Part shown: positions 4,425-48,128 of the stretch, in pieces
Position numbering within the stretch: the stretch's first letter is position 1
How the letters are laid out: each line of letters begins with the position of its first letter
Assembly (NCBI GenBank): GCA_963666675.1
Contig: OY762929.1
Location: 2,300,544-2,364,543, forward strand
Reading direction: 5' to 3'
DNA from: an uncultured Desulfobacter sp.
GTDB lineage: Bacteria; Desulfobacterota; Desulfobacteria; Desulfobacterales; Desulfobacteraceae
DNA length: 64,000 bases
Program-made: the position numbers and the translations under genes
The notes under the pieces: generated by a model
Told to the model about the DNA's origin: nothing
Seen by the model: the letters and a program-made list of their open reading frames with translations, nothing else
Database searches by the model: none

Positions 4425-4438
4425 GGGCGCTACAGGCG

Positions 4439-4963: not shown

Positions 4964-4973
4964 CTACGCTTGT

Positions 4974-11371: not shown

Positions 11372-11384
11372 ACTGTCTCCTTTT

Positions 11385-11690
11385 TATATGAAAGTCTCAG
11401 TAAGCCACTGAGTTCTTTCAACCTTCGTTGTGGGCTGTCCTTCAGTGCTGATATGTCAGGTCAGCCCATGGCTGTTTATATGAAAGACTGGGTAAGTTAC
11501 TCAGGTCTTTTAAACTTTGTTTTGGGCTGAGCCTGGCAGTTGATATGTCCTGTCGGCCCATGGCCGTTATTACATCTAAATCTTATAAATAAGTAACGAC
11601 AGGTGGCTCAGGTTACTTTCATATTTTGGTTTGGGCTGACCTGGCAATAGACGTATGCCTGATCAGCCCAGGGCTGTAGTGGTATTAAAC
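11385..11690. repeat. three tandem degenerate copies (~92 bp each) of a dispersed intergenic REP/MITE-like repeat (stem ctcagtaagccactgag; core GTCAGGTCaGCCCATGGC)
   Basis: Direct reading. Units begin at about 11385, 11477 and 11575. The same unit recurs at 27570..27654, and a half-unit at 58490..58545. Confidence 0.6.
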
Positions 11691-24482: not shown

Positions 24483-25670
24483 ATGCCGGGTGGTTTTGTT
24501 TTTAAAATCATCCGGCTTATTGAAAAGAGTATAATTTTGAATACGATTTTTAAAAATAAAACAGATGTAAGGATTATTGCCTCAAAAAACAGTTGGATAG
24601 AAGGGAAGGCGGAACGTCAGTTGCTGAAGACATCAGGACTTGATGGGGTTGAATGCAGTGTTGGTTTTCCGGATATTCATCCAGGCCGGGGCATTCCCAT
24701 TGGTGCCGCATATTTAATTCGCGGGATCATTTACCCCTATTTAATCGGGAACGATGTGGGATGCGGAATCGGTCTTTTCAGGACTGGTATCAGAAAAAAT
24801 AAAATTAAAATTGATAAGTGGATCAGAACACTGGGTGATCTTAATGATCCTCATGGGGTCGACATTTCCTATTGGATGGATCAATTGGGGCTGAAGACAC
24901 CTTTGACAGATACTGCTTTAGGGACCATTGGTTCAGGAAACCATTTTGCCGAATTGCAAACAATAGAAAAAGTTTTTAACGAAGAATTGTTTTTCGGCAT
25001 GGGGCTGGATAAGAATCTGCTTACCCTGGTTGTTCACAGTGGTTCACGAGGTATTGGAGAGGCCCTGCTTCGCAGACATGTAGATAAATATGGTACCCGA
25101 GGGCTCCAGTCGGATAGTCAGGAGGGTAAGGAATATTTAGTCCGGCACGACCAGGCTTTAAAATGGGCAGGTTGTAACCGGGCAGCCATAGCTGAGAAGT
25201 TTGCATCCAGAATTGGAACAGACTGCTGGCCCATCATTGACACATATCACAATCAGATCTCATACGTGAATTCCGATAATGAGGGCTTCTGGCTGCATCG
25301 AAAAGGCGCCGTTGGTTCTGATTTCGGCCCTGTTTTAATACCAGGATCAAGAGGTAGTTTAAGTTATCTTGTCAGGCCCAAAGGGGATCAGCGCAAAAAT
25401 TTATTGTCCCTGCCCCATGGGGCTGGGCGGAAGTGGGATCGGGCCGGTTGCAAGGAGAGGCTGAGAAGTCGATATGATATTAATTCCCTTAAAAGAACAG
25501 GGTTTGGCGGTCATGTGATTTGTGATGACAGGGAGCTTTTATATGAAGAAGCCCCTCATGCCTATAAAAATATCGATCAGGTGATTCAGGATCTTCTTGA
25601 TGAAAATTGGGTTGACGTTATTGCCACATTTAAACCGCTGGTAACATACAAAAAAAGGAAAAATAAATGA
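24483..25670 (+). CDS. release-factor-H-coupled RtcB-family RNA ligase (RtcB2)
   Basis: 395 aa. RtcB-family motifs (metal-binding His/Cys, GSGNHFAELQ, PHGAGR). Translationally coupled to prfH by an ATGA overlap. Confidence 0.75.
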   Translation: MPGGFVFKIIRLIEKSIILNTIFKNKTDVRIIASKNSWIEGKAERQLLKTSGLDGVECSVGFPDIHPGRGIPIGAAYLIRGIIYPYLIGNDVGCGIGLFRTGIRKNKIKIDKWIRTLGDLNDPHGVDISYWMDQLGLKTPLTDTALGTIGSGNHFAELQTIEKVFNEELFFGMGLDKNLLTLVVHSGSRGIGEALLRRHVDKYGTRGLQSDSQEGKEYLVRHDQALKWAGCNRAAIAEKFASRIGTDCWPIIDTYHNQISYVNSDNEGFWLHRKGAVGSDFGPVLIPGSRGSLSYLVRPKGDQRKNLLSLPHGAGRKWDRAGCKERLRSRYDINSLKRTGFGGHVICDDRELLYEEAPHAYKNIDQVIQDLLDENWVDVIATFKPLVTYKKRKNK

Positions 25671-26296
25671 TAAACTGGTTACAGATAACATCCGGGCGCG
25701 GCCCGGAAGAGTGTTGCTGGGTTGTGGCAAGGCTATCGGAATGCATTGTCAAAGAGGCGGAAATCAAAGGGATTTCATACAAAATTATTGAAAGGATTTC
25801 CGATGTTAAATCAAACTTGCCCAAATCGGTATTGATTTCACTTGAAGGGGATGCCGTTGATACCTTTGCAACCTCTTTTGAAGGGACGGTCCAATGGATT
25901 GGCAAAAGCATGTTCAGGCCGCATCATAAGCGGAAAAACTGGTATGTTGGCGTGAATCTCTTTTCACCCCTGAAAGAAAATAAGTGGTCTTTTGATCAAT
26001 TGAAAATCGAAAAGATGAGAGCATCCGGGCCTGGCGGACAGAATGTCAATAAAAGAGAGACAGCTGTCAGGATTACACATAAACGAACCGGTTTGAGTGT
26101 GACAGCCCAGGAGGAGCGTTCTCAGTATCTGAACAAAAAGCTGGCGTTAAGCCGGTTAAATGAATTGCTGAAAAAAAAAGAAAGTAAAACCGAGATGAAA
26201 AGTCAGAATCGTCGATGGAATGGCCATAATCGGCTTGAACGGGGCAACCCTGTCCGGGTTTATAAAAACGAAGAATTCAGTTTGACTATAGTTTGA
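25667..26296 (+). CDS. prfH: peptide chain release factor H (PrfH; GGQ-containing RF lacking domain 1)
   Basis: 209 aa. SGPGGQNVNKRETAVRITH release-factor catalytic motif. Short length and pairing with an RtcB paralog define the PrfH family. Confidence 0.75.
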   Translation: MINWLQITSGRGPEECCWVVARLSECIVKEAEIKGISYKIIERISDVKSNLPKSVLISLEGDAVDTFATSFEGTVQWIGKSMFRPHHKRKNWYVGVNLFSPLKENKWSFDQLKIEKMRASGPGGQNVNKRETAVRITHKRTGLSVTAQEERSQYLNKKLALSRLNELLKKKESKTEMKSQNRRWNGHNRLERGNPVRVYKNEEFSLTIV

Positions 26297-26339: not shown

Positions 26340-27542
26340 TTACCCTTTCACAACCCCGAGAGGGCGAAGTTTGTTCAGGGGCTTGATCAAATCAAGCTGG
26401 TCTTCAATTACGGTTTCAATATTTTTATATGCCTGGGGTGCTTCCCCAAGGTCGTACATGCCCTTGGCTTTGCCGCGCCTGACCTTACTCCAGCGGTCGA
26501 AAACGATGCCTTGCATGGCCTGGTCGCAGTTTTCGGGTGTAAGTTCTCTGGTTGCCTGTAGCCGTCCCAGGACCCGCCCTGCACCATGGGAACAGGACAT
26601 GAACGACTCAGGATTACCCAGGCCTTCGACGATGAAGGAAGGGGTTCCCATTGAACCAGGAATAATTCCGGTCTCTCCTTGTTTGGCTGAGGTTGCCCCT
26701 TTTCTATGAACCCACACATTCTTATTAAAATGGTTTTCCAGGGCTGCATAATTATGGTGAATATTAACTTCATCGGCAAATTCAGTCCCGGGGAAAACTT
26801 GCGTAAAAGCATCCTTGAACCGGGTCATTATTTTTCTGCGGTTTTCACGGGCATAAGAGAGTGCAAAATTCATATCATTGATATAATTTTGCCCTTCCGC
26901 TGTCTCTGCCGGCAAAAATGCCAGGTCTTTTCCTGGTGTGTCTGCATGCCACTTTTGATTCAGTTTAACCGCAATGTCATTATAAAAGCGTGCTATCACA
27001 TTGCCCAGATGCCGGGAACCGGAGTGGATCATCAGCCAGATCCGGTCATCATCGCCTGCCTGGATTTCTATAAAATGATTGCCGCCGCCAAGGCTGCCTA
27101 AATTTTTATAGGCAAGTTTTTTAACATGGGACGAGTACCACCCTCTCTCTTCATACGCTTCAATGTCATCAAGGTTTTCCCATATCTGGGGCTCTTTATG
27201 GGCGTTACCTTCTCCACAGGGAATATATTTTTTGACCAATGTAACAGCCTCTCGTAGGTTGTGCCGGCTAGTTTCGGACACTGGGAGGTTGGTTCTGACA
27301 GATCCCATGCCACAACCGATATCCACACCCACGGCATTAGGGATAACAGCATTGTCCGCGGCAATTACGCCACCGATGGGCATACCGTAGCCCGGATGAC
27401 AGTCCGGCATCAGGGCTACGTGGTGGAAAACAACAGGGTGCATGGCCAGATCCTCGGCTTGCGCCATGGCAAGTCCTTCGAGGTTTGAACACCAGGATTT
27501 TATAGGGACTTTATATTTATCTTCTTTTTTTACCCACTCCAT
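26340..27542 (-). CDS. rtcB: RNA-splicing ligase RtcB (canonical, 3'-phosphate/5'-OH RNA ligase)
   Basis: 400 aa. Hallmark motifs DCHPGYGMPIGGV, GGGNHFIEIQ, HSGSR, SCSHGAGR. Confidence 0.85.
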   Translation of the reverse strand: MEWVKKEDKYKVPIKSWCSNLEGLAMAQAEDLAMHPVVFHHVALMPDCHPGYGMPIGGVIAADNAVIPNAVGVDIGCGMGSVRTNLPVSETSRHNLREAVTLVKKYIPCGEGNAHKEPQIWENLDDIEAYEERGWYSSHVKKLAYKNLGSLGGGNHFIEIQAGDDDRIWLMIHSGSRHLGNVIARFYNDIAVKLNQKWHADTPGKDLAFLPAETAEGQNYINDMNFALSYARENRRKIMTRFKDAFTQVFPGTEFADEVNIHHNYAALENHFNKNVWVHRKGATSAKQGETGIIPGSMGTPSFIVEGLGNPESFMSCSHGAGRVLGRLQATRELTPENCDQAMQGIVFDRWSKVRRGKAKGMYDLGEAPQAYKNIETVIEDQLDLIKPLNKLRPLGVVKG

Positions 27543-27569
27543 TTTTTATTCCTCTTTATTTTATAAGAA

Positions 27570-27654
27570 AGTCTCAGTAAGCCACTGAGTTCTTTAAACC
27601 TTTGTTGTGGGTCGAGCCTGGGTGTCGATAGATCAGGTCGGCCCATGGCTGTTA
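27570..27654. repeat. single copy of the REP/MITE-like repeat in the rtcA-rtcB spacer
   Basis: aagaaagtctcagtaagccactgagttctttaaacctttgttgtgggtcgagcctgggtgtcgatagatcaggtcggcccatggctgtt. Same unit as at 11385..11690. Confidence 0.55.
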
Positions 27655-28698
27655 TTTTTCAACTGATATCTGCCAACGGCGGTCATCAATTTTTGTACAG
27701 TTTATATTCAGGTCTAAAAATTGTTTTACGACTTCAATATTTGTCATTGTATGACGGCTGGGCGGTTGGGTGACAAATGACCCTCCACCGGCCATGGCCA
27801 AAGGGATTAACAATTGATCCGCAAGATATTTTCCCACGGGGGCATCAGAAGCCAGATAGCTTTTCACCTGACCCACACATCTTTTGGCAACCTTTTCAGC
27901 GGTAACCCCTTTGACCCCGAATCCGGTAAACACCTCTGTAAGATTTTCGCTTTCCACGCAGAGCGTCAACACGTTCCCCGGTCCATGGGAATCAAGGATG
28001 TTCACAATTTCACAGTTTTCCCAGCCCAACAGCTTTTTGACTGTTTTAATCTCTCTTGCTGCAATGTTTTCAGCCAGGTTTGCTACAAACGCCTTTGCTG
28101 TTTTATTTAATACGTCACCCCGCTGGGTGAGATCTATTTTTCCAAGAGGGGCAGGGGCAATCTCTACTTTTATCTTTCCCCCGCCAGCCGGATAAAAACC
28201 GGGGCGAATCAAAGCTGCTGACACGGTTGGGCCCATCTTGTTGATGAGCCCAATAAATGTCTGATCGAGAAAATCAAAAGGCGGGGCATATGGATTGTGG
28301 GTGCCGCCTTCCAGTATGACCTCGGACGGTCCGTCTGCCGCCAGCAATGCCGGTAATATTGTTTGAAGGACCAATGTGCAGCTTCCTGCTGTTCCGATGG
28401 CAAAATTATAATTGCCGGTGATTATATTGCTTGGTTCAAATTTAATGGACTGTGAACCGATGTTCGCACCTTCTGCCTTTGCATTGCCCACTTTGAGGGC
28501 CGCATTGACGCAGGTCAGGTGCTGCCGCATCAGTCCCGGCTTTTTTCTCCCTGCCCGGATCTTGTTTATTGTGAAAGGTTTGCCTGTAACCAGGGACAGG
28601 GCAAGGGAGGTCCTCAAAATTTGTCCGCCACCTTCTCCAAGCATTCCGTCAATCTCCAACATGATATTATCCTTTTGCTTTAACTGCGCTAAGTTCAC
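27652..28698 (-). CDS. rtcA: RNA 3'-terminal phosphate cyclase RtcA
   Basis: 348 aa. [22 protein letters not shown]...RAGR.KPGL.RQHL matches the RtcA nucleotidylation-site region (a downstream Met is a possible start). Confidence 0.8.
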
Positions 28699-29046
28699 AG
28701 CAGGTTCACAACACGATCCGCAAGCCCTTTTTCTCCGAGCACAACACTCATTTTTGAATTTGATACCACCCTTTCAAGGATATCAAGTTCACGCAGCCTC
28801 ATCAGTGTTGGATTGTTGTCCAGAAGCTTGGCTGTGTTTGCCTGGCTTCTCATGGCTGCAGTCTCTTCTCTTCTCATGATCAGGTTGGATTCTGCAGCCT
28901 TTTTGGCTTCAATGACCTTGTTCATCAGGTCTTTCATATCGCCCGGCAATATAATATCTCTGATGCCGAAGCTTCTTACCTGAATGCCTAAAGCTTGAGC
29001 GCTGTCTTGGATCGCCGCAATCAAATCATTTGATACGTTTTCTTTT
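28695..29046 (-). pseudogene. SPFH/band-7 (stomatin/HflC-like) gene, C-terminal fragment, severed by IS66 insertion
   Basis: Reading frame continuous from the IS boundary (29046) to the stop at 28695. Coiled-coil C-terminal region typical of SPFH proteins. The N-terminal half lies at 31645..32401 beyond the IS. Confidence 0.55.
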
Positions 29047-29196
29047 GTGTCCTTTCGGCAAGCCTGTGTAAATCAAAAAAATTAAGATAACATTCAAAAC
29101 AGACCCGATCCAAAAAAACAGTGTGTAAGGCGATGAGGGATAGTTTGCAGTGCAAAAATGTGTCTCAAAACATACTGGATTGGCTAAAAGGTCGTT

Positions 29197-30759
29197 TTAC
29201 AGATTATCAGCTGTTTCCCCTGATTTTTTAGCGATTGTGTTTTCAAATGACCACGGCAACCAGTCAGAAGGGTTTTGGAAGATCTCGGAAGAGTGCTTCT
29301 GTAGTGCGGTCAGGTATTCAAAGGGATTTATATTTTGCAGGTTGCAGGTATGTATCAGGCTCATGAACAGGTCGCCAATATAGGCACCGTGTTCGGTTTT
29401 ATAAAATAATGAATTTTTTCGGTGCAGAATCGACTTTTTCAGCAATTGTTCGCAAAGATTATTATCCAGCGGTGCTCCAGGGATCTCCAGGAAACGGGTC
29501 AATTCCTGCCAGTGATTCAACATATATGATATGGCCTTGCCCAGACTGGAGTTGGGTTCTACTTCTTTGTTTTCAAACTTGTCTTCCAGCCATACTTTAA
29601 GCGCCCGCATCAGTGGACCGCTGTGGGTTTGATGATATTGAAGGCGTTGAGCATCGTCCAGGCCTTGCTCCCTTACCTTATGATCGTGCTCATAAATTTT
29701 AGCCACTGTATCAATTACATGGTCACACTCCTCAGGGAAATCGTCCATGACGTCGACAAAGTTACGGCGTCCATGCACGAGACAATTGCATAATATCGAT
29801 TCAAAACCTTTTGGCAGATTCCTGGACAGAGCATCACACATCTGTATTGGCCGATCTTCTCTGGATCCCCGTTCTTTCAGAATCCTGGATAAATTTTCTC
29901 CAGCATGATTGTGGCCGGTAAAAAACAGGGCAATCTTTCCTACGTCACATTCTGACAGGATTCCGGAAGTGAACATCCCTTTTCGCTTGGCTGCCTTGTC
30001 TGTTTCTTTTATCAAGGATAAAATTTTCATTGTCGTGTCGTCATTGTACAACACCTTGCCTTGTGCAGCCTGACGGACTAACTCTGTATATACCGGATGA
30101 ATCTTGTCTGCTACGCTTTCGATGATTTCCCATTGGGTCGATGGGGGCAGCGGCATCCCCAGGCTAGCCTGAAGTTTGCCCAAGCGGTATAAAGGGACTC
30201 CTCTGCCATATTTTAGAAGGGCCAGCATGGCACCGGATTTGGCATCATATTTTTCTTTGCCCACATTGTCGGGCGCCTGGGCAGTAAAAATCTGCCCACA
30301 AAGGTTACACCGCAATCTCTGCAGTTCATATACTGTCGCCTGGAAGGGAGCACCGCCTGTTATCCGGACGATCTTGGCAGGTGGTTTTTCACCATACAAT
30401 TTACCTTTTTCACAGGCAGGGCAATCATTACCTGACTTAAGGCTTTGATGACAGATCTTGATCTTCTTGGCACCTTTATAGGCGTTTGCACCATTTTTGC
30501 CGTGACCTTTTTTCTTCTTTTTTCGTTTCGGCCGGTTCTGCGGATTCGACGTTTTCTTCTTTTCGGTCTTATCGCCGAATACCATTTTTAATAACCGTTT
30601 AATGGATGCTGCTTTTTCATTGGACAACGTATTCAAATAAGCAACGGTTTCAACCAATGCTTTGATCAACTCATAATCGCCGTCCTGCAGTTCATTTGAT
30701 CTTACCCGCTCAAGGAGCGCGTCAAGTTCGTCCTGCTTTATGTCCATCGTTTTTGACAT
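29197..30759 (-). CDS. IS66 transposase TnpC (zinc-finger + DDE)
   Basis: 520 aa. CPACEKGKL...CNLCGQ zinc-ribbon, leucine-zipper-like N-terminus. Typical IS66 Orf3 architecture. Confidence 0.8.
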   Translation of the reverse strand: MSKTMDIKQDELDALLERVRSNELQDGDYELIKALVETVAYLNTLSNEKAASIKRLLKMVFGDKTEKKKTSNPQNRPKRKKKKKGHGKNGANAYKGAKKIKICHQSLKSGNDCPACEKGKLYGEKPPAKIVRITGGAPFQATVYELQRLRCNLCGQIFTAQAPDNVGKEKYDAKSGAMLALLKYGRGVPLYRLGKLQASLGMPLPPSTQWEIIESVADKIHPVYTELVRQAAQGKVLYNDDTTMKILSLIKETDKAAKRKGMFTSGILSECDVGKIALFFTGHNHAGENLSRILKERGSREDRPIQMCDALSRNLPKGFESILCNCLVHGRRNFVDVMDDFPEECDHVIDTVAKIYEHDHKVREQGLDDAQRLQYHQTHSGPLMRALKVWLEDKFENKEVEPNSSLGKAISYMLNHWQELTRFLEIPGAPLDNNLCEQLLKKSILHRKNSLFYKTEHGAYIGDLFMSLIHTCNLQNINPFEYLTALQKHSSEIFQNPSDWLPWSFENTIAKKSGETADNL

Positions 30760-30792
30760 GAAATGTGTGCTATCACATTTAAACTCTAATGT

Positions 30793-31140
30793 CTAGATTT
30801 TTTTCCACAAAAGTACATTATTTTTTTGAGGATTTCCGTTCCATATCAACATCTGTAATTCATGTGCAGCCAATGGGTGAATTTCATCTCCTCCCTTTTT
30901 AGGCCACCATTTAAAACGCCCCTTGCTCAATCTTTTTTGACAAAGCCAGAAGCCCTGGCCATCATATATTAGTATCTTCAGGGCAGTCCCCGGTTTGTTT
31001 CTGAAAACAAAAACATATCCGGAAAAAGGATTTTGTTTTAACACCCTGCGACAAACAGCTGCCAGGCCGTCGATCCCCTTTCGAAAATCAGCAGGAGTTA
31101 CCGCCAGCATTATCCGCATTTGCGGTGTGATTTGGATCAT
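30793..31140 (-). CDS. IS66 Orf2 (TnpB)
   Basis: 115 aa MIQITPQMRIMLAVTPADFRKGIDGLAAVCRRVL... is the characteristic IS66 TnpB. Confidence 0.8.
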   Translation of the reverse strand: MIQITPQMRIMLAVTPADFRKGIDGLAAVCRRVLKQNPFSGYVFVFRNKPGTALKILIYDGQGFWLCQKRLSKGRFKWWPKKGGDEIHPLAAHELQMLIWNGNPQKNNVLLWKKI

Positions 31141-31577
31141 GGAACACCAGCCAGTAAATATTTACCAAGGCTGATCACTGCCGGGTCTGCACGACCTTTA
31201 AAACACATACGCATCTTAAAACCGGCCTGATTCTCCATTTCTATTATACAGTTGGTATCTTCCGGCGCTGGAGTGATCTCTATAAACAGGGGGGAGTCAT
31301 CGTCTTCTTCAGGAGAATCGACTGTAGTACAATGAATGGCATTATAAATTTTTTGTTTTAATGTGGTATGATTAAGCCGTAAACTGTGGGCAATCTTATT
31401 TATGCTCAGCCCTTGAGCATGGTGAAGGTCTGCTGCCGCCTGCCATAAATTATCCGGTATTCTTGACCTTCCGGTTCTGTTATTTCGCCAGTCTGCAAAA
31501 AGCTGCTGGACTTTTTCTAATGCGATTGATTGTTCTGCTGTCAATAATTGTTTATTCATCGGTCCCTCCATTAGCAA
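31137..31577 (-). CDS. IS66 Orf1 (TnpA, HTH)
   Basis: 146 aa. Position and overlap (ATGA) with Orf2 match the IS66 three-ORF layout. Confidence 0.7.
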   Translation of the reverse strand: MLMEGPMNKQLLTAEQSIALEKVQQLFADWRNNRTGRSRIPDNLWQAAADLHHAQGLSINKIAHSLRLNHTTLKQKIYNAIHCTTVDSPEEDDDSPLFIEITPAPEDTNCIIEMENQAGFKMRMCFKGRADPAVISLGKYLLAGVP

Positions 31578-31644
31578 TGTTCAAGTTGGAACCGATAATA
31601 TCACCCGGTACTGGGTATTTCACGCAGGCTTACCGGAAGGACAC

Positions 31645-32401
31645 TTTCTTTTTCGTTCAGCACTGAATCAAGTTCCAATGCACCAATCACGGATCGTAAT
31701 GCAAGTTGCGCCTCCCTGTACAAGACTTGTTGGCTGTCTTCGGACAATGATACTGATTTCAGCGCATCTGTGATGCCAAAGCTCAGCATGGCATTCATTC
31801 TCAGAGTCACTTTATCAGATGTCATGATCTCCTGGCCTGACACATTCAGGAGTTTTTCTCTCAGATCAACCGGAAAGAACCTGTTTACAGCTGTTCCGGT
31901 CCAGAAAAGATGGCGGCCTGCGGGAAGGGTCTCAACATATTTTCCATCTTTAAAGTGCACACATTTATGCCCTTCCTGGACATCAACAATATAGAAAAAT
32001 TGAGCCGCATCTTCATTTTTTGCGATCTGGGCCACAGCCTCGTGCATGAAACGAACCTGTCTTGCATCAATTATCTCAACCCTTAGTTTTTTAAAGTCTT
32101 TCCAAAGGGCGTAAAGGCCGGGGCCGAGGATTTTGGCAAACCTTCCTTCAACCCATACAAGTGCACGCTGATAATCCTCTAAGTCAATGACCTGCACGTG
32201 ATTGTCCAGCATACCAGACTTAATCATTAAATCTAAATTCTCATGAATCAGCCATGGATTTTTCATTGAGGCAATGTCTACTCTGACGCTGAAAAAGGGA
32301 TCCGCAAACCAGTGGCGGCCTTTTTCCAGGATACCTTTAAATTCTCTATCTTTGAAGTATAACCCTTTTTCGTAAGAACGGATTTTTTTTGTTCTAATCA
32401 T
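31645..32401 (-). pseudogene. SPFH/band-7 gene, N-terminal fragment (first gene of SPFH-rtcA-rtcB operon), truncated by IS66 copy 1
   Basis: ATG at 32401. SPFH-type core (KVTLRMNAMLSFGITD...). The ORF runs 43 nt into the IS before stopping. Confidence 0.55.
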
Positions 32402-32460
32402 TTTTTTTCCTTTTCGTTTTCAAGCCGTTCTCAGTCCGGCCAATGTAATGGTTTAAGAAG

Positions 32461-32476
32461 AGCAATCCGTCATCCG
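32461..32476 (-). promoter_or_regulatory. weak candidate sigma54 (-24 GG / -12 TTGCT) promoter element upstream of SPFH-rtcAB
   Basis: Minus-strand sequence cGGatgacggaTTGCt has the GG-N10-GC spacing. Only a partial match to TGGCAC-N5-TTGCW. Expected because RtcR is a sigma54 activator. Confidence 0.2.
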
Positions 32477-32731
32477 GCGACACCTGGATCTGCGGAGCAG
32501 TATTTAAGTATATGAATCATGCTTGCTTCGTTTGGCGGATACTCTGTCAAACCAAACCATAAGCTCAACATTTTTTCTTCATTCGTTGTGAACAGTTCAT
32601 ATACGGTATCCATATGCTTCATGGCGAATCCGTGGGTGTTGTTTTCTCCATCTGCCTGATAAAATTTCAGCGTTTGGGAAAACCTGCCGGATCACTTCAT
32701 GCCCTCCTTAAACCTTTTTAAGATAAACCAA

Positions 32732-32804
32732 TTACCGGAGCAGGAATCGAACCTGCAACTCTCGTGTCCTTTGCACGATGCTCTACCCATTGAGCTATCC
32801 ATTA
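32732..32804 (-). pseudogene. tRNA-like element, apparently degenerate (class I cloverleaf, A at position 33, acceptor-stem mismatch, no encoded CCA)
   Basis: Minus-strand TAATGGA-TA-GCTC-AATGGGTA-GAGC-A-TCGTG-CAAAGGA-CACGA-GAGTT-GCAGG-TTCGATT-CCTGC-TCCGGTA-A. Good D-arm (GG18-19) and T-arm (TTCGATT). The anticodon loop lacks U33, and the 5' acceptor strand has 2 changes that break pairing. Confidence 0.4.
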
Positions 32805-33046
32805 AGATGCCGTTCCTTTGTTAGAATCCATGTCCGGAACACCCAGTATTTACAGCTTTAGTTGAATACTGTGTGCCGCTGGCCCGGTGGCATCTGCCTT
32901 TGCTATAAAGCAACGGGTGTGCCAGTTGCTAAAAGAAATATTTATAAAATTATAACTATTTAAAAAAATAGTGATTATGACGAGTTTTGGGGCATTAGAA
33001 GCTTGACATGTGATATTTGCGTTTTGTAAAATATAGAAATATTGAT

Positions 33047-34651
33047 ATGAAAAAAACGGTTGTAATCGGGATTTTAGGGCCTGTACTTGATAGAGGGGAA
33101 AATGCATCACGGTGGGAACACTGGCGGCCAACTGTGGCGATATGTCAGCACAGCGAGCTTTTGGTAGATCGCTTTGAGCTCCTTTATGAGAAAAATTATA
33201 CTCGTCTGATGAAGCGGGTAAGAGAGGATATCCGGGATGTCTCTCCGGAAACGCAAGTGGTTCCTGTTGAAACCGATTTTTCTGATCCGTGGGATTTTGA
33301 AGAGGTATATGGCGTATTGCTCGATTTTGCCAAAGGATACCACTTTGATATTGAAAATGAAGATTATTTGATTCATATCACCACAGGGACCCATGTTGCC
33401 CAGATATGCCTTTTCCTTCTCATCGAATCAAACTATTTGCCGGGTCGGTTATTGCAGACAAGTCCTCCCCATAGAAAAAGGAACCATGATCTGAGCGGGG
33501 AATATAGAATTATTGATTTGGATCTTTCCCGATATGATCAGATTGCCATGCGATTCGAGCAGGAGATGAAAGATGATATTTCTTTTCTAAAATCCGGCAT
33601 AGAAACACGGAACCCATCGTTTAATAATTTGATTGAACAAATTGAGCGTGTTGCCATCAACTCGGTTGACCCTGTTTTGATAACAGGCCCCACCGGCGCT
33701 GGTAAATCCCGTTTGACCAGAAGGGTGTATGAATTGAAAAAAGCCAGACGCCAGTTAAAAGGGCGTTTTGTGGAAGTCAATTGTGCGACCTTGAGAGGTG
33801 ATGGGGCAATGTCTGCTCTTTTCGGGCATAAAAAAGGGTCATTTACAGGGGCGACCAGCGACAGGGACGGCCTTTTAAAAACAGCAGATAACGGCATGCT
33901 GTTTTTAGACGAGGTGGGCGAACTTGGCCTGGACGAGCAGTCCATGCTGCTTAGGGCAGTTGAGGAAAAGCAGTTCCTGCCTGTGGGTTCCGATACCGAG
34001 GCCCATAGTGACTTCCAACTGATTTGTGGTACCAACCGGAACCTGTTTCAAGATGTCATGGAAAAAAGATTCCGGGAGGATCTTCTTGCCAGAATAAATC
34101 TATGGACGTTTGAAATGCCGGGATTGAATAAGCGGCCTGAAGATATTGAGCCGAATTTGAACTACGAACTTGACCGTTTCACCGAAAGAACCAAACGGCA
34201 TATCACATTCAATAAGGAGGCTCGGAATCGATTTTTAAAATTTGCAACCTCCCCCGAAGCGCTCTGGCCTGCAAATTTTCGAGATCTTAACGGCGCCATT
34301 ACAAGAATGGCAACACTTGCACCTGGTGGCAGGATCACGGACCAGGTTGTCAAAGATGAAATCCATAGACTATCCCTTAGATGGGGCTCCTTTCCAAAGC
34401 AAAGAGATGATGGAATATTAGTGGAACTGATCGGTGAAGAACGAACTGCAGCTCTTGATCGATTTGAAAAAATACAGCTTGCAGATGTTATTAGAATCTG
34501 TCGCACTTCCAAAAATATTGCACAGGCAGGCAGAACTCTTTTTGCAGCATCAAGAAAAAGAAAGACACGTTCAAATGATTCGGACCGACTGAGAAAATAT
34601 CTTTCTAGATATCAAATAAGCTTTCAAACTCTCCGATTACTTCAAAAGTAA
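33047..34651 (+). CDS. rtcR: RtcR: sigma54-dependent transcriptional activator with N-terminal CARF domain, AAA+ sigma54-interaction domain and C-terminal HTH
   Basis: N-terminal region MKKTVVIGILGPVLDRG...WRPT..ICQ...LIHITTGTHVAQICLFLL is the RtcR CARF signature. Central GPTGAGKS Walker A and GAFTGA-like FGHKKGSFTGA region. Divergent from the rtc operon. The ORF-track start 33017 is probably too early. Confidence 0.8.
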   Translation: MKKTVVIGILGPVLDRGENASRWEHWRPTVAICQHSELLVDRFELLYEKNYTRLMKRVREDIRDVSPETQVVPVETDFSDPWDFEEVYGVLLDFAKGYHFDIENEDYLIHITTGTHVAQICLFLLIESNYLPGRLLQTSPPHRKRNHDLSGEYRIIDLDLSRYDQIAMRFEQEMKDDISFLKSGIETRNPSFNNLIEQIERVAINSVDPVLITGPTGAGKSRLTRRVYELKKARRQLKGRFVEVNCATLRGDGAMSALFGHKKGSFTGATSDRDGLLKTADNGMLFLDEVGELGLDEQSMLLRAVEEKQFLPVGSDTEAHSDFQLICGTNRNLFQDVMEKRFREDLLARINLWTFEMPGLNKRPEDIEPNLNYELDRFTERTKRHITFNKEARNRFLKFATSPEALWPANFRDLNGAITRMATLAPGGRITDQVVKDEIHRLSLRWGSFPKQRDDGILVELIGEERTAALDRFEKIQLADVIRICRTSKNIAQAGRTLFAASRKRKTRSNDSDRLRKYLSRYQISFQTLRLLQK

Positions 34652-35045
34652 TTTCACCACAAAGGCAAGAGCCTTTATATTTCATGCACCTTCTCCTAAA
34701 TTTTAATTAGTTTAGTGCGTTGCTATAGAATCAGATCTGAAGCGTTTTCCATTTATCCTCTAAACAGCAGGAGAATATCCCGACTGCCACTGTAGGGCAA
34801 TGGAGAATTTGAATCTTGGAAATCAGATTTGACCAATCGACATTTTAAGTTGTGGCGAGGACTATTCGTCTGAGAAACTCAGTATCTCAGACGAATCAAC
34901 ACAATAGATTATCCCTGTCAATCATGTTGTTTAAATTCTTGCTTGTTGACTTATTTTAATCTGCAGGGTGCCCGACCGGGTCTTTCTGGCTGTTGTTGTA
35001 TTTGATGGGGAAGTATACTCTTTTTTTGCCTTTTTTTAATAGTAT

Positions 35046-35447
35046 TCACAACACTCGAATTCCTGATGAGTTGTTCAGCAGAATCCACAAAAAAAGCAGA
35101 CCTGGAAAGCCCCTGGCTTTTGCAACCCTGTCAATCTTGATAAGTTTATACTCAGGAACCGTAATATTTATCCTCTGGGTCTTGGGAGCGATGAAGGTAA
35201 AATCAATATCAGAAAGGTACAAAAAACTGTCTCTGGTATACAAATCTGAATCTAAAAGGTCGTCCATTTTAGAGGGAGTCGGGGGTTCAGAGATGTCTTC
35301 GCCGTTATAATATAATTCTACCGCTTCTTGTATGTTAAGGATGGCTTCCTCCTGGGTATCACCATATGCAAAACATCCAGGGATATCAGGTATAGTCACC
35401 CCGTAACCGGTGTTATCGTCCTTATGAATAATTACCGGATATTTCAT
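35046..35447 (-). CDS. hicB: HicB-family antitoxin
   Basis: 133 aa. N-terminal MKYPVIIHKDDNTGYGVTIPDIPGCFAYGDTQEEAILNIQEAVELY is typical of HicB. Directly downstream of hicA with a 1-bp gap. Confidence 0.65.
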   Translation of the reverse strand: MKYPVIIHKDDNTGYGVTIPDIPGCFAYGDTQEEAILNIQEAVELYYNGEDISEPPTPSKMDDLLDSDLYTRDSFLYLSDIDFTFIAPKTQRINITVPEYKLIKIDRVAKARGFPGLLFLWILLNNSSGIRVL

Positions 35448-35448
35448 T

Positions 35449-35649
35449 TCACTTTCTCCATTTTAATCCTGCCATTCTATAAATATTTCTGGCTGTCCCA
35501 ATAGGTAGATCTTTTTGTAGATGAGGTACAATTACAATTTTACAATTTTCATGCTTGAATTTGTGATGATCACCAGACACTTTAACCAATACGAATCCAG
35601 CATTTTTAAGTTCTTTTATGATCTGCCTGCTGTTTATATCTATAAACAC
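35449..35649 (-). CDS. hicA: HicA-family mRNA-interferase toxin
   Basis: 66 aa. ELKNAGFVLVKVSGDHHKFKHENCKIVIVPHLQKDLPIGTARNIYRMAGL matches the HicA dsRBD-like fold signature. Confidence 0.7.
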   Translation of the reverse strand: MFIDINSRQIIKELKNAGFVLVKVSGDHHKFKHENCKIVIVPHLQKDLPIGTARNIYRMAGLKWRK

Positions 35650-35984
35650 ACACTATACACACAAAAATCAACTAATAGGTATCGATTCAAAAGAAATTTT
35701 TGGGGGTATGTCCATTTCAAAACAGGCGTGGCTGGTATCTTTGTTGCCCTTTTATTCGATTTTCTAAAATTGAAAAATAATTTAATAGCGTGGACTACTA
35801 TTAGGCTATGGAGCCCTTTTCAGGCAAATTGGCACCTCAGACTTTCCCTGTTTGTCCTGGTTTAGAAAATTAAAAACTGTTTTGATTTAATTGAAGATCT
35901 GACAGATCAACCTGAAAAAGTTGAAGTGAAAAATGATTTCCGGCCGGGAAAACCTGTTTGCTAAGTTTCAGTAGATTTTCAAAC

Positions 35985-36652
35985 TCAAGACGAACAGCTA
36001 TAGTGTGAAACGCCGCCAACGTTAAAAAATGCCTCAGGTTTTAGACGATAATATTTATCTTCTACCCTCTGCGATTGCTCATCATATGGAGAGCTAAGAA
36101 CGTCTTGCAACTCCCTTACTAAGGTGTAGTCACCCAGCATGGCTTGTTGATAGGCGGGGGCAATCAACCACTCTCGCCATGCGTATTTGGGATTTGTTTG
36201 TTTCATTTTTGTCGATATCTCAGCCAAATTTCCGCCTTTGATAACAAGGTCGCGCCAGCTTTTCAGCCAAGATTGCCATTGCTCATCAAGTTGCTGAGAG
36301 TTCTTGTTATAGAAGCTCTTTTTCAAGGCGGAAATAGTCTCTGGTACATGGGATAATTCACGGAAGAAAATGGTGTAATCCACCTCTGATTTGGTCAGTA
36401 ACTGCATTAATCCCTGCACTATATTTGGTTGATAGTCTGTCAAGCCAAGCTTGGCGGCCCACATGTTTTGCATTTGTTTTTCCATTGCCGCTGCAAAACC
36501 ATGACGTATTTGATCCAATTGTTCCAAAGCTTGGGCATCTTTTGCAAGCAGCGGTCTCACTGTAGTCCAAAACATGTGGTAATTGGCTTCTGCTGCGGTT
36601 GGCTGATTGAAGAAGGAAAAGTGTTCTCCGCCCCCGGTCCATGGCTGAAACC
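35985..36652 (-). pseudogene. selO: selO (YdiU/UPF0061 protein adenylyltransferase) C-terminal fragment, split by IS66 copy 2
   Basis: Continues the SelO sequence after ...[17 protein letters not shown] with FNQPTAAEANYHMFWTTVRPLL.... The 5' part of the annotated ORF (to 36761) is IS-derived. Confidence 0.6.
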
Positions 36653-36802
36653 GTGTCCTTTCGGCAAGCCTGTGTAAATCAAAAAAATTAAGATAACATT
36701 CAAAACAGACCCGATCCAAAAAAACAGTGTGTAAGGCGATGAGGGATAGTTTGCAGTGCAAAAATGTGTCTCAAAACATACTGGATTGGCTAAAAGGTCG
36801 TT

Positions 36803-38365
36803 TTACAGATTATCAGCTGTTTCCCCTGATTTTTTAGCGATTGTGTTTTCAAATGACCACGGCAACCAGTCAGAAGGGTTTTGGAAGATCTCGGAAGAGT
36901 GCTTCTGTAGTGCGGTCAGGTATTCAAAGGGATTTATATTTTGCAGGTTGCAGGTATGTATCAGGCTCATGAACAGGTCGCCAATATAGGCACCGTGTTC
37001 GGTTTTATAAAATAATGAATTTTTTCGGTGCAGAATCGACTTTTTCAGCAATTGTTCGCAAAGATTATTATCCAGCGGTGCTCCAGGGATCTCCAGGAAA
37101 CGGGTCAATTCCTGCCAGTGATTCAACATATATGATATGGCCTTGCCCAGACTGGAGTTGGGTTCTACTTCTTTGTTTTCAAACTTGTCTTCCAGCCATA
37201 CTTTAAGCGCCCGCATCAGTGGACCGCTGTGGGTTTGATGATATTGAAGGCGTTGAGCATCGTCCAGGCCTTGCTCCCTTACCTTATGATCGTGCTCATA
37301 AATTTTAGCCACTGTATCAATTACATGGTCACACTCCTCAGGGAAATCGTCCATGACGTCGACAAAGTTACGGCGTCCATGCACGAGACAATTGCATAAT
37401 ATCGATTCAAAACCTTTTGGCAGATTCCTGGACAGAGCATCACACATCTGTATTGGCCGATCTTCTCTGGATCCCCGTTCTTTCAGAACCCTGGATAAAT
37501 TTTCTCCAGCATGATTGTGGCCGGTAAAAAACAGGGCAATCTTTCCTACGTCACATTCTGACAGGATTCCGGAAGTGAACATCCCTTTTCGCTTGGCTGC
37601 CTTGTCTGTTTCTTTTATCAAGGATAAAATTTTCATTGTCGTGTCGTCATTGTACAACACCTTGCCTTGTGCAGCCTGACGGACTAACTCTGTATATACC
37701 GGATGAATCTTGTCTGCTACGCTTTCGATGATTTCCCATTGGGTCGATGGGGGCAGCGGCATCCCCAGGCTAGCCTGAAGTTTGCCCAAGCGGTATAAAG
37801 GGACTCCGCTGCCATATTTTAGAAGGGCCAGCATGGCACCGGATTTGGCATCATATTTTTCTTTGCCCACATTGTCGGGCGCCTGGGCAGTAAAAATCTG
37901 CCCACAAAGGTTACACCGCAATCTCTGCAGTTCATATACTGTCGCCTGGAAGGGAGCACCGCCTGTTATCCGGACGATCTTGGCAGGTGGTTTTTCACCA
38001 TACAATTTACCTTTTTCACAGGCAGGGCAATCATTACCTGACTTAAGGCTTTGATGACAGATCTTGATCTTCTTGGCACCTTTATAGGCGTTTGCACCAT
38101 TTTTGCCGTGACCTTTTTTCTTCTTTTTTCGTTTCGGCCGGTTCTGCGGATTCGACGTTTTCTTCTTTTCGGTCTTATCGCCGAATACCATTTTTAATAA
38201 CCGTTTAATGGATGCTGCTTTTTCATTGGACAACGTATTCAAATAAGCAACGGTTTCAACCAATGCTTTGATCAACTCATAATCGCCGTCCTGCAGTTCA
38301 TTTGATCTTACCCGCTCAAGGAGCGCGTCAAGTTCGTCCTGCTTTATGTCCATCGTTTTTGACAT
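36803..38365 (-). CDS. IS66 transposase TnpC (copy 2; 2 aa differences from copy 1)
   Basis: Identical 520-aa translation except R/S and I/V substitutions. Confidence 0.8.
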   Translation of the reverse strand: MSKTMDIKQDELDALLERVRSNELQDGDYELIKALVETVAYLNTLSNEKAASIKRLLKMVFGDKTEKKKTSNPQNRPKRKKKKKGHGKNGANAYKGAKKIKICHQSLKSGNDCPACEKGKLYGEKPPAKIVRITGGAPFQATVYELQRLRCNLCGQIFTAQAPDNVGKEKYDAKSGAMLALLKYGSGVPLYRLGKLQASLGMPLPPSTQWEIIESVADKIHPVYTELVRQAAQGKVLYNDDTTMKILSLIKETDKAAKRKGMFTSGILSECDVGKIALFFTGHNHAGENLSRVLKERGSREDRPIQMCDALSRNLPKGFESILCNCLVHGRRNFVDVMDDFPEECDHVIDTVAKIYEHDHKVREQGLDDAQRLQYHQTHSGPLMRALKVWLEDKFENKEVEPNSSLGKAISYMLNHWQELTRFLEIPGAPLDNNLCEQLLKKSILHRKNSLFYKTEHGAYIGDLFMSLIHTCNLQNINPFEYLTALQKHSSEIFQNPSDWLPWSFENTIAKKSGETADNL

Positions 38366-38398
38366 GAAATGTGTGCTATCACATTTAAACTCTAATGT

Positions 38399-38746
38399 CT
38401 AGATTTTTTTCCACAAAAGTACATTATTTTTTTGAGGATTTCCGTTCCATATCAACATCTGTAATTCATGTGCAGCCAATGGGTGAATTTCATCTCCTCC
38501 CTTTTTAGGCCACCATTTAAAACGCCCCTTGCTCAATCTTTTTTGACAAAGCCAGAAGCCCTGGCCATCATATATTAGTATCTTCAGGGCAGTCCCCGGT
38601 TTGTTTCTGAAAACAAAAACATATCCGGAAAAAGGATTTTGTTTTAACACCCTGCGACAAACAGCTGCCAGGCCGTCGATCCCCTTTCGAAAATCAGCAG
38701 GAGTTACCGCCAGCATTATCCGCATTTGCGGTGTGATTTGGATCAT
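38399..38746 (-). CDS. IS66 Orf2 (TnpB), copy 2
   Basis: Identical to the 30793..31140 product. Confidence 0.8.
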   Translation of the reverse strand: MIQITPQMRIMLAVTPADFRKGIDGLAAVCRRVLKQNPFSGYVFVFRNKPGTALKILIYDGQGFWLCQKRLSKGRFKWWPKKGGDEIHPLAAHELQMLIWNGNPQKNNVLLWKKI

Positions 38747-39183
38747 GGAACACCAGCCAGTAAATATTTACCAAGGCTGATCACTGCCGGGTCTGCACGA
38801 CCTTTAAAACACATACGCATCTTAAAACCGGCCTGATTCTCCATTTCTATTATACAGTTGGTATCTTCCGGCGCTGGAGTGATCTCTATAAACAGGGGGG
38901 AGTCATCGTCTTCTTCAGGAGAATCGACTGTAGTACAATGAATGGCATTATAAATTTTTTGTTTTAATGTGGTATGATTAAGCCGTAAACTGTGGGCAAT
39001 CTTATTTATGCTCAGCCCTTGAGCATGGTGAAGGTCTGCTGCCGCCTGCCATAAATTATCCGGTATTCTTGACCTTCCGGTTCTGTTATTTCGCCAGTCT
39101 GCAAAAAGCTGCTGGACTTTTTCTAATGCGATTGATTGTTCTGCTGTCAATAATTGTTTATTCATCGGTCCCTCCATTAGCAA
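38743..39183 (-). CDS. IS66 Orf1 (TnpA), copy 2
   Basis: Identical to the 31137..31577 product. Confidence 0.7.
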   Translation of the reverse strand: MLMEGPMNKQLLTAEQSIALEKVQQLFADWRNNRTGRSRIPDNLWQAAADLHHAQGLSINKIAHSLRLNHTTLKQKIYNAIHCTTVDSPEEDDDSPLFIEITPAPEDTNCIIEMENQAGFKMRMCFKGRADPAVISLGKYLLAGVP

Positions 39184-39250
39184 TGTTCAAGTTGGAACCG
39201 ATAATATCACCCGGTACTGGGTATTTCACGCAGGCTTACCGGAAGGACAC

Positions 39251-40324
39251 GAAGGAAAAGTGTTCTCCGCCCCCGGTCCATGGCTGAAACCCGGGGTCGA
39301 AAATTTCACAGAATCCAAATGGTCCATAGTCGAGGGTAAAGCCGCCGGCAGCGCAGTTGTCACTATTAAAATTACCCTGGCAGTACCCAATACGCTGCCA
39401 ATTGGCCACTAATGACGTTAGCCGCCTGCGAAAAACCTTTGCCAACTCAACCACTTGATCCGTAAAAAAAAGGTCTTGATTGATATCGTTTTGGTATTCC
39501 CGGTCAATTAAATGCGATACAATCATGCGCAACTCTTCCAAGGCGCCTGGATGGGCATTGCCGCGAACCCGGCGGGCAAATAACTCTAACTGGCCAACGC
39601 GCAAAAAAGAGGGTGCAACGCGGGTTGAAATAGCCACAGGATTATCCATCATAATGTCAGGATCGGTGGAATGGGAGTCTTGGGCGTACCAGGGCCGGGC
39701 AACGCGCTCAGATTTTGATACATACAGGGTTAAAGATCGTGTTGTGGGAACCCCCAGGGCGTGCATATACTCTTGGGCGAGGAACTCACGCACACTTGAA
39801 CGAAGTACTGCACGCCCGTCGGCGCCACGGCAATAAGGCGTTGGACCACCGCCCTTTAGCTGCATTTCCCAACGCTGTCCTTTGAATACCCCTTCAAATA
39901 CTGATATCGCCCGACCATCGCCATAACCATTACCGGTTCCAAATGGACATTGTTGGGTATATTCGGTGCCGTAGATTGACAGGGCATAGCCAACGGACCA
40001 GCCAATTTTACGCATAGGCTTTTGCGCGGCTGAAATATCACCGGAAAATACCCGGCAAAATTTCGGATCATTTACCAACGCGTCGTTCAACCCAAGTTCA
40101 TTAAAAAAAGTCCTGCTATGGATTACATATTCCGGGTCCGGAAGCGGCGTGGGCCTGACCGGTACGAAGTGACCGGAAAATACCTGGCGGGCACGGTGGT
40201 CATCCCCATCTCCTGTGGCATCAGGATCGGCCTTTAAGGTGTCCATCAAAGAATAATCGGCTAATCTCACAAACTCGTCGAAAGTCGATATGCGCTCCTG
40301 AGCAGATGGCTTAGATAATGTCAT
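39251..40324 (-). pseudogene. selO: selO N-terminal fragment (kinase-fold adenylyltransferase domain)
   Basis: 358 aa ...[43 protein letters not shown]...[12 protein letters not shown] match conserved SelO/YdiU motifs. The last 4 codons of the ORF are IS-derived. Confidence 0.6.
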
Positions 40325-44562: not shown

Positions 44563-45110
44563 ATGAAAAAGGGAAAAGTCTTATCGTGTATTTTTATTAT
44601 TATTTTTTCTGTTTGCATAAAAATAAATCCTATCTTAGCATCGGATTCTCCAATTTTTGAGGATAATTTCGACGTTACAAACAATTGGTCTGCAGATAAT
44701 GGAGTATGGGAAGTTGGTATACCGACCAGCGGACCGGGAAGCGCCAATAGCAGCACAAATTGTGCTGGGACAATTTTAAATGGTAATTATCCTGATAATA
44801 CGGACAGCCGTCTTATTGGACCCTTTCGTTCCCCTTGGGATCAAGGTATTGAGCTTCCCGAGGTGACTGGAGATGAAGAGATCCGCCTGCGTTTTTGGCA
44901 CTGGTTTTCCTATTCCAACTATAATTACCCCAACCATTATGACCGGTATGACAAAGGACATGTCCAAGTCGATGTTTTTGACGAAGATACAGGCAGTTGG
45001 CCGGGAAACTGGCAGACTTTGGGCAGTGTTCAGGCGTATTCACCTGTATGGTCTTTGATGAGTGTGGATCTCACCGCTTTTGCCGGTCAGAAAATCAGGA
45101 TTGCATTCTA
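44563..45110 (+). pseudogene. 5' fragment (signal peptide + first ~175-aa beta-sandwich repeat) of secreted repeat protein, truncated by transposon insertion
   Basis: MKKGKVLSCIFIIIFSVCIKINPILA signal. Repeat sequence identical to units in 48103..50160. Diverges from the repeat consensus after ...QKIRIAFY at about 45109. Confidence 0.6.
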
Positions 45111-45355
45111 TTGTTAATTCTTTCCCTACAGTACCTCTATATCATCTAAAAATCCCACCTATCGTTACATTTTCTGAGAAAATAATGAGCTTGTTAAATA
45201 AGATTTTTTAAAAAAGAAAAGGCACATCGGTAGACAGCAGGAACCGCCCGATGCCTTGGCATCCTCCTCCCCCCCTTTGGGGGGGATAAGAGGGGGGGAT
45301 TGTGGTATAGATTAAGTTCGCCAAAACCATCACCACCACAACCCCGACCCTGCTT

Positions 45356-45853
45356 ATGAAAGAAAGCATAATAAGAAATCAGTCATCTGCCAAGGAAAAA
45401 CAACAGGTTCGTTGCTGCCATTGTTCGAGTTCTTTGACCATCCGTAACGGAACCTATCCGCGAAATCATCCCCAAGACGACACAGAAATAAGGGTTCAGC
45501 GCTATTTGTGCAAATCGCCCCTGTGTCCATGGAAAAGTTTTTCTGTTCTTCCTGAATCCATCATGCCGGTCGTCCGTCACACCCTTGAGGCGATATGCTG
45601 CTGCGCAGCCATGGTCAGTGCCGGAATGAACCAGGCACAGACGGCAAGATTCTTTGGGTGCACCCGGGGTGTTGCTAAACGGCTCAGGATCTTTTCTCAA
45701 AAATTCATGCCCTGGTTTTCCCGGGAAAAGACTGTTGCCGAATGGGGGCCGGATCCGCCCTCCTTCTGGCCGGACTTTACCAGGGATGTTTCCCAGAGTT
45801 TTTTCCCTGGAAGATGGGTTAAATTACCATCAACACAAAACATACATTGTTAA
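45356..45853 (+). CDS. Cys-rich zinc-ribbon protein (transposon accessory)
   Basis: 165 aa with CCHCSSS...CKSPLCPW cysteine clusters. Confidence 0.35.
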   Translation: MKESIIRNQSSAKEKQQVRCCHCSSSLTIRNGTYPRNHPQDDTEIRVQRYLCKSPLCPWKSFSVLPESIMPVVRHTLEAICCCAAMVSAGMNQAQTARFFGCTRGVAKRLRIFSQKFMPWFSREKTVAEWGPDPPSFWPDFTRDVSQSFFPGRWVKLPSTQNIHC

Positions 45854-45911
45854 ATTACAGTCGGTTATGTTGATATGCCACCAATTCCAACTATCAATTA
45901 AGGAGGTGGTC

Positions 45912-47117: not shown

Positions 47118-47119
47118 TC

Positions 47120-48060: not shown

Positions 48061-48128
48061 CTGTAATCAATTGCCAGCCGGGTAATCAAACCTGAGATTT
48101 TTATGGGATTAGCTCGTCGGAATCTACA

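Follow-up and report, generated by a model that had tools for sequence, protein, structure and literature searches.

Elements of the IS66 family of insertion sequences (IS), such as IS66, ISRm14, IS679 and ISEc8, carry the three genes tnpA-tnpB-tnpC, with an ATGA overlap between the first two, and end in imperfect inverted repeats of about 27 bp. The family norm is a target duplication of 8 bp, and classical members have ends of the GTAAGCG type. Each transposase family is taken to have a fixed length of target duplication, which serves as its signature and by which annotation tools delimit IS elements. Long and variable flanking repeats, from 8 to 514 bp, have been described for IS1549 and IS1634, with 'no mechanistic model' (PMC2266710). 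Here we describe two copies of an IS66-family element in a 64,000-nucleotide stretch of the genome of an uncultured Desulfobacter sp. (assembly GCA_963666675.1, contig OY762929.1, positions 2,300,544 to 2,364,543; hereafter the window). One copy is flanked by the usual 8 bp and the other by an exact 41-bp direct repeat. In the account that we favour, at a probability of roughly 0.75, one active element inserted twice, independently and recently, and the likeliest cause of long duplications such as that of 41 bp is widely spaced strand transfer.

The two copies are in direct orientation, 2598 bp each, with 5008 bp between them (Table 1). A gapless comparison and BLAST found them to be 99.92% identical, with mismatches only at 29883 (T/C) and 30202 (T/G) in window coordinates, and the similarity breaks off sharply at both tips. 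The original prediction, made from the sequence of the window, had given these coordinates, sizes, orientation and near identity, and a difference of two residues between the TnpC proteins. All of this was confirmed, the two substitutions being R186S and I293V (R186/I293 in copy 1, S186/V293 in copy 2). Its assignment of the pair to IS66 also held, with TnpB and TnpC models above their curated cut-offs. Because the flanks of the two copies differ, the pair is not an assembly duplicate collapsed from one locus, an outcome that the same prediction had considered. No third copy of the 2598-bp IS, full or partial, was found in the 64-kb window.

The element has tnpB immediately upstream of tnpC, as in the IS66 family, after a small ORF (open reading frame) that overlaps the start of tnpB and is the putative tnpA; the terminal inverted repeats of the element match at 22 of 27 positions in an inverted-repeat alignment. 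It differs in its end motif, GTGTCCYTYCGG rather than the GTAAGCG type, and in belonging to a divergent clade – a protein search of PLSDB gave 10 records, in which no plasmid-borne IS66 transposase exceeded 44.5% identity to TnpC and which added no useful insertions. The tnpA ORF had no family match in Pfam or NCBIfam, and the zinc-finger, leucine-zipper and C-terminal domains of IS66 TnpC gave no Pfam match at E <= 0.001. Exact-protein look-ups of TnpC copy 1, TnpB, RtcB and a truncated TnpC (P0180) found nothing on record.

Each copy splits a gene that is restored when the IS is deleted together with one copy of its own flanking repeat. The original prediction had recognised the interruption of an SPFH gene and of selO, which both reconstructions support; the flanking repeats were absent from it. 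Deletion of copy 1 and one 8-mer (TTTCTTTT) restores a 366-amino-acid (aa) Band-7/SPFH ORF, the closest homologues of which are intact 366-aa 'slipin family' proteins that align across 100% of the query. In a relative (L163; retrieved loci are numbered with the prefix L), DNA that is 83–85% identical crosses this site uninterrupted, with the 8-mer present once. Deletion of copy 2 and one 41-mer (GAAGGAAAAGTGTTCTCCGCCCCCGGTCCATGGCTGAAACC) restores a 566-aa SelO, while deletion of the IS alone leaves a frameshift in selO, and deletion of the IS with 8 bp leaves an 11-aa internal repeat in the protein. The best 120 SelO homologues listed are mostly 566–567 aa long, and a 13-residue SelO segment is present once in all 10 of the homologues inspected. 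An alignment to the SelO of P. syringae (6eac) is colinear across the copy 2 junction. Two other relatives (L153 and L154, 90% identical DNA) have the 41-mer region once, and empty sites therefore exist in relatives at both insertion positions.

Since each copy has its own flanking duplication, and since the split genes continue outside the pair, the two copies are separate insertions into resident DNA. Two direct copies of one IS around a few kb resemble composite transposons of the Tn9 type, which have IS1 arms, and the original prediction had called the pair composite-transposon-like. In such a reading the 10.2-kb unit would have moved in whole, with rtcR and hicAB as cargo. It is consistent with the near identity of two direct copies around 5 kb, with outer ends that form a valid pair of left and right inverted repeats (IRL/IRR), and with a G+C content of the 5-kb segment slightly below that of the window (42% vs 47.8%). 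As an account of origin, however, it is already contradicted by the data. The two duplications belong to the individual arms, and the outer flanks of the pair are unlike – TTTCTTTT on the left and GAAGGAAA... on the right – so that no single duplication surrounds the IS-cargo-IS unit. The Band-7 and selO halves within the pair are completed by halves outside it, and the 'cargo' is thus resident DNA, not foreign to the site. Furthermore, L163 has rtcR, Band-7, rtcA and rtcB in an unbroken series with no IS, and none of the other IS copies retrieved carries rtcR-hicAB cargo. Arrival as a composite is extremely improbable; the pair that had been described is ordinary in that it consists of two recent, independent insertions into a resident chromosome, 5 kb apart.

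The pair still has consequences for the stability of the region. With valid outer ends it is structurally able to act as a composite, and joint mobilisation of the whole 10.2 kb by these ends is possible in principle, as a potential only. Direct IS copies can lose the DNA between them by RecA-dependent recombination. The original prediction that this would excise rtcR is sound in principle; the loss would amount to 7606 bp and would take in rtcR, the sigma-54 promoter, the tRNA-like gene and hicAB. The pair marks an active IS and sets up this 7.6-kb deletion.

Relatives of TnpC were collected from species-representative genomes (69 loci), metagenomes (80 loci) and exact look-ups (eight loci). 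Those of the clade are mostly in uncultured Desulfobacterota, Nitrospirota, Planctomycetota and others. The clade is defined by the end motif GTGTCCYTYCGG, and more than 60 related loci share the terminal motif. All of the clade keeps the tip motif GTGTCCYTYCGGYAAGCSTG, which allows both ends of a copy to be located with single-base precision, and exact repeats that abut the ends were sized in 74 distinct copies. The flanking repeat was 8 bp in 16 copies, 7 bp in one copy and long (25–251 bp) in five copies, and 52 copies had none. Thus 17 of the 22 recognisable duplications were 7–8 bp, and about one quarter (5 of 22) were 25, 34, 41, 206 or 251 bp.

The 41-bp case is copy 2 of the window, in selO. 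The 25-bp repeat flanks the same insertion in two samples (L161/L162), and the 34-bp repeat flanks a copy (L144) whose ends are confirmed by another locus (L143). The 206-bp repeat (L066) is in a long-read metagenome-assembled genome of Ca. Eisenbacteria, at 42–46% TnpC identity. Three sibling copies in the same genome, 99.8% identical, show 8-bp duplications and confirm the ends of the L066 copy. The 251-bp repeat (L001) is on a 40.8-kb metagenome contig. The IS there is identical to copy 2 across all 2598 bp, and the exact direct repeat on its two sides comprises the 3' end of a TraR/DksA-type gene together with a 5' portion of a DUF2730 gene.

The IS at L001 lies within a Mu-like prophage (L001:1-13563) that has the genes portal_Mu, Mu_F and Gp27, and a transposable phage of this kind could serve to spread the IS. 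A scan of viral_contigs with TnpC found no relative, and with the end motif it gave no more than two single tips.

The formation of both short and long flanking duplications by one element is a property of IS1549 and IS1634, and the clade of the window element does likewise, over 8–251 bp. Their transposase is IS4-related, whereas the window element has the unrelated combination of an IS66 DDE transposase with TnpA/TnpB accessories. It behaves like the IS1634 family in duplication length but is not a member. No reports of long duplications for IS66 were found in the literature searched, the coverage of which was partial, so that this is weak evidence and a prior description is possible. The 41-bp duplication and the recurrence of 25–251-bp lengths in the clade are a real pattern that is, to our knowledge, undescribed.

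A tandem 41-bp duplication that was already present in selO when the IS inserted was also considered. It was rejected – it would put selO out of frame, and the same exact coincidence of a duplication with the IS tips would be needed at five unrelated sites.

The length of a target duplication is set by how far apart the two strand transfers fall on the opposite strands of the target. A long exact repeat therefore needs either wide joins in a single event, or two nearby insertions followed by unequal recombination in the IS. In the favoured account, the 2598-bp tnpA-tnpB-tnpC element would have entered resident genes of this Desulfobacter twice. Copy 1 would have entered the Band-7/SPFH gene, the first protein gene of a putative RtcR/sigma-54-controlled operon (b7a-tRNA-like/Band-7/rtcA/rtcB), with a canonical 8-bp duplication, and copy 2 would have entered selO, with duplication of 41 bp of selO sequence. 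In some events the joins of the IS ends to the two target strands would lie not 8 bp but tens to hundreds of bp from each other, and filling of the gaps would then duplicate the whole interval between the joins. Widely spaced strand transfer of this kind is the likely cause of the long duplications.

The target preference of the clade bears on this choice. The 8 bases beside each tip approximate G-A-T-N-N-A-Y-C, with a half-site next to each end. A target weight matrix was trained on 177 flanks that were kept out of the test. Canonical junctions scored +0.71 bits in the end-proximal half and +0.77 bits in the distal half. At the long-repeat junctions the end-proximal half-site scored +1.44 bits, and the partner half-site 8 bp away was background-like (-0.81 bits). 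The distal half-site scores of long and canonical junctions differed with p = 0.03 (one-sided Mann-Whitney, n = 10 vs 34). The long repeats thus look like 'stretched' duplications, with each end at its own half-site, and this weakly favours wide joins. The lengths of 8, 25, 34, 41, 206 and 251 bp have, by arithmetic, no common phase modulo 10.5 bp, and a simple helical-phase geometry is therefore not indicated.

The long repeats would instead be secondary if two 8-bp insertions with the same orientation occurred within tens to hundreds of bp of each other, in different cells or on sister chromosomes, and unequal recombination within the IS followed. The products would be one IS flanked by the duplicated interval and a reciprocal product with a deletion. 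This mechanism is established in general genetics and predicts exact repeats of any length, as seen, and many of the copies without duplication could be its reciprocal deletion products or other inter-IS recombinants. Yet it requires two independent insertions within 17–243 bp of each other in Mb-sized genomes, while the long repeats make up 5 of the 22 duplications, and no locus with two nearby copies was found among about 160 loci. The long-repeat junctions also lack the partner half-site expected of a canonical insertion (the difference of -0.81 vs +0.77 bits above). We consider recombination between nearby insertions an unlikely source of the long repeats.

Repeats are error-prone in assemblies, and the second copy or its 41-bp repeat could be an artefact of assembly or polishing. 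Two of the lengths are of some concern here, because assemblers may use k-mers of 41 and MiSeq reads are commonly as long as the 251-bp repeat of L001, although the names of the contigs point to long-read assemblers. On the other hand, the two copies in the window have different flanks and 2 internal differences, and their source is a single 6.48-Mb contig, with a 7.6-kb spacing that fits one long read. Five unrelated assemblies, produced by different tools, have such exact repeats, in every case directly abutting IS tips that sibling copies confirm, and an artefact would not keep the end-proximal target half-site. We consider an artefact very improbable.

Besides these two lengths, several points weigh against two recent insertions with widely spaced joins as the full account. 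The mechanism draws on five long cases and a weak test (p = 0.03), and the 41-bp repeat is known from assembled sequence. The survey of duplications covered the end-motif clade. Of the 52 copies without a duplication, most come from short-read metagenome contigs that are possibly chimeric; 8, however, belong to long-read or complete assemblies, which means that the junctions are more heterogeneous than a simple model predicts. In the metagenome scan, 33 of 34 tip pairs had no duplication, mostly on IS-length short-read contigs. The flanks of a multi-copy repeat are easily mis-joined on such contigs, and these pairs, probably chimeric, were taken as uninformative.

Two long-read (HiFi) Desulfobacter assemblies hold the same IS insertion (TnpC P0005) at the same site without a flanking duplication (L155:4117-6713 and L156:4117-6713). 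The insertion may have been accompanied by a deletion, or it may be an inter-IS recombinant, and it is among the copies to which the recombination route described above could apply.

A broader proposal is that the GTGTCCYTYCGG clade has an intrinsically loose coupling of the two strand-transfer steps, so that a sizeable fraction of its transpositions give duplications of tens to hundreds of bp. We regard the chances for and against this proposal as even. Loose coupling would possibly also give matching deletions, which would explain the many copies without a duplication. If it is correct, the clade would be a second, unrelated transposase family with IS1634-like behaviour, and a tractable three-protein system (TnpA, TnpB and TnpC) in which to study the origin of long duplications. 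Such a clade would also be a new handle on the unexplained long repeats of IS1549 and IS1634. A family in which about one quarter of the duplications are 25–251 bp would be mis-annotated by tools that delimit elements by duplication length, and long duplications would create small duplications of gene fragments.

The genes interrupted and bracketed by the pair belong to an RNA-repair locus and its neighbours (Table 1). The content given for the bracketed segment in the original prediction – the 5' half of an SPFH gene, a tRNA-like element, rtcR, hicBA and the 3' half of selO – agrees with the family matches and with ARAGORN and Rfam. Beyond copy 1 are the 3' part of Band-7, rtcA and rtcB, and beyond copy 2 are the 5' part of selO and an OYE-type oxidoreductase.

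Table 1. Positions of the two IS66-family copies, their flanking repeats and the surrounding genes in the window.
Feature	Position	Strand	Evidence
IS66-family element copy 1, 2598 bp	29047..31644	-	imperfect terminal inverted repeats of ~27 bp, starting GTGTCCTTYCGGYAAGCCTG
tnpA copy 1, small first ORF (140-146 aa)	31137..31577	-	ATGA: tnpA stop overlaps tnpB start
tnpB copy 1, IS66 accessory protein, 115 aa	30793..31140	-	PF05717 99.6 bits; NCBIfam NF033819 99.1 bits (cut-off 50)
tnpC copy 1, DDE transposase, 520 aa	29197..30759	-	PF03050 162.8 bits (cut-off 23.1); NF033517 equivalog 214.1 bits (cut-off 180)
8-bp target duplication TTTCTTTT, left of copy 1	29039..29046	.	single copy in L163 empty site
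8-bp target duplication TTTCTTTT, right of copy 1	31645..31652	.	single copy in L163 empty site
IS66-family element copy 2, 2598 bp	36653..39250	-	tnpA 38743-39183, tnpB 38399-38746, tnpC 36803-38365
41-bp exact direct repeat GAAGGAAAAGTGTTCTCCGCCCCCGGTCCATGGCTGAAACC, left of copy 2	36612..36652	.	single copy in intact selO homologues
41-bp exact direct repeat, right of copy 2	39251..39291	.	identical to 36612..36652
rtcB	26340..27542	-	PF01139
rtcA	27652..28698	-	PF01137
Band-7/SPFH gene, 3' part	28695..29046	-	reconstruction; 366-aa homologues; L163
Band-7/SPFH (slipin) gene, 5' part, cut by IS copy 1	31645..32401	-	PF01145; reconstruction 366 aa
tRNA-like gene	32731..32805	-	ARAGORN Leu-AAG; Rfam tRNA 50.9 bits
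sigma-54-type promoter (predicted) TGGCAC-N5-TTGC, facing tRNA-like gene and Band-7-rtcA-rtcB operon	32910..32924	-	sole match in window; 0.2 expected by chance
rtcR, sigma-54 activator with RtcR N-terminal domain	33017..34651	+	PF06956 281.7 bits; PF00158 164 bits
hicA (35449-35649) and hicB (35046-35447), toxin-antitoxin pair	35046..35649	-	PF07927, PF15919
selO, 3' part, cut by IS copy 2	35985..36652	-	PF02696
selO, 5' part	39251..40324	-	PF02696

The Band-7/'b7a-tRNA'/RtcB arrangement, an RNA-repair operon under RtcR, is credited to Burroughs and Aravind 2016 in bioRxiv 10.1101/312249. The window has a corresponding layout, with a divergent rtcR, a sigma-54 promoter, a tRNA-like gene, Band-7, RtcA and RtcB, and by its sequence would hold such an operon. 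The tRNA-like gene sits between the promoter and the Band-7 gene, a position that fits the predicted 'band-7-associated tRNA'. The window differs in that IS copy 1 interrupts the Band-7 gene and that rtcA and rtcB, which are downstream in the operon, are now parted from the promoter. A relative (L163) has the intact layout of rtcR, Band-7-rtcA-rtcB and prfH-rtcB, without an IS.

The insertions would inactivate both the Band-7 gene and selO. In addition, copy 1 is in sense orientation between the RtcR-dependent promoter and rtcA-rtcB, so transcription from the induced promoter would run into tnpABC, and rtcA and rtcB would rely on read-through for their expression. The two genes are probably uncoupled from the sigma-54 promoter.

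Several other features of the locus were observed. A prfH gene at 25667-26296 (TIGR03072, 246.7 bits) is convergent with rtcB. The module of prfH and a second rtcB is kept in L163, so that two RtcB-type repair modules stand back to back at this locus. The space between rtcA and rtcB is filled by one copy (27559-27653) of a 95-bp repeat, 84% identical to another copy (11382-11476) that lies upstream of a 388-aa minus-strand ORF (10205-11371). On the other side of rtcR, hicAB occupies the interval toward selO (35046-35985), where the G+C content falls to 37% (35-36 kb). Among the relatives, an M20 peptidase follows selO in L154 and ssb follows rtcR in L163; the way in which the rtc module adjoins selO therefore varies.

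Some copies elsewhere in the clade have unusual structures. The larger relatives (3.4–4.5 kb) have a fourth ORF between tnpB and tnpC, of about 293 aa and matching the Pfam family PF14236 'DruA' (L161:4117-4998, also L162), which the 2.6-kb element of the window lacks. One copy, 94.6% identical, is aberrant and nested (L004:2598-5885). Its left 519 bp are tandemly repeated (2598-3116 vs 3117-3635, 99.4%), and the full IS (3117-5711) is followed by 135 bp of unrelated DNA and then by the 40-bp right end again (5846-5885). The nested structure as a whole is flanked by an 8-bp duplication, CAAAAACC. It shares a contig binned as Planctomycetota (CAUVYI020000015.1) with a second copy (L002), about 10 kb away and 99.4% identical. 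The placement of these copies reflects either cross-phylum transfer or a mis-binned contig.

There appears to be another mobile element in the window. In the region 45654-47956, an rve-integrase ORF (487 aa, HTH_32) and, after it, an ORF for an AAA_22 ATPase (278 aa) form a pair like TniA/TniB or like that of IS21. Around this pair are 239-bp repeats, 97–98% identical, at 44873-45111, 48419-48657 and 48944-49182. A tandem repeat with a period of 525 bp and 95.7% identity between units (48173-49425) lies inside a 685-aa ORF (48103-50160), which has a weak match to an InhA-like MAM domain.

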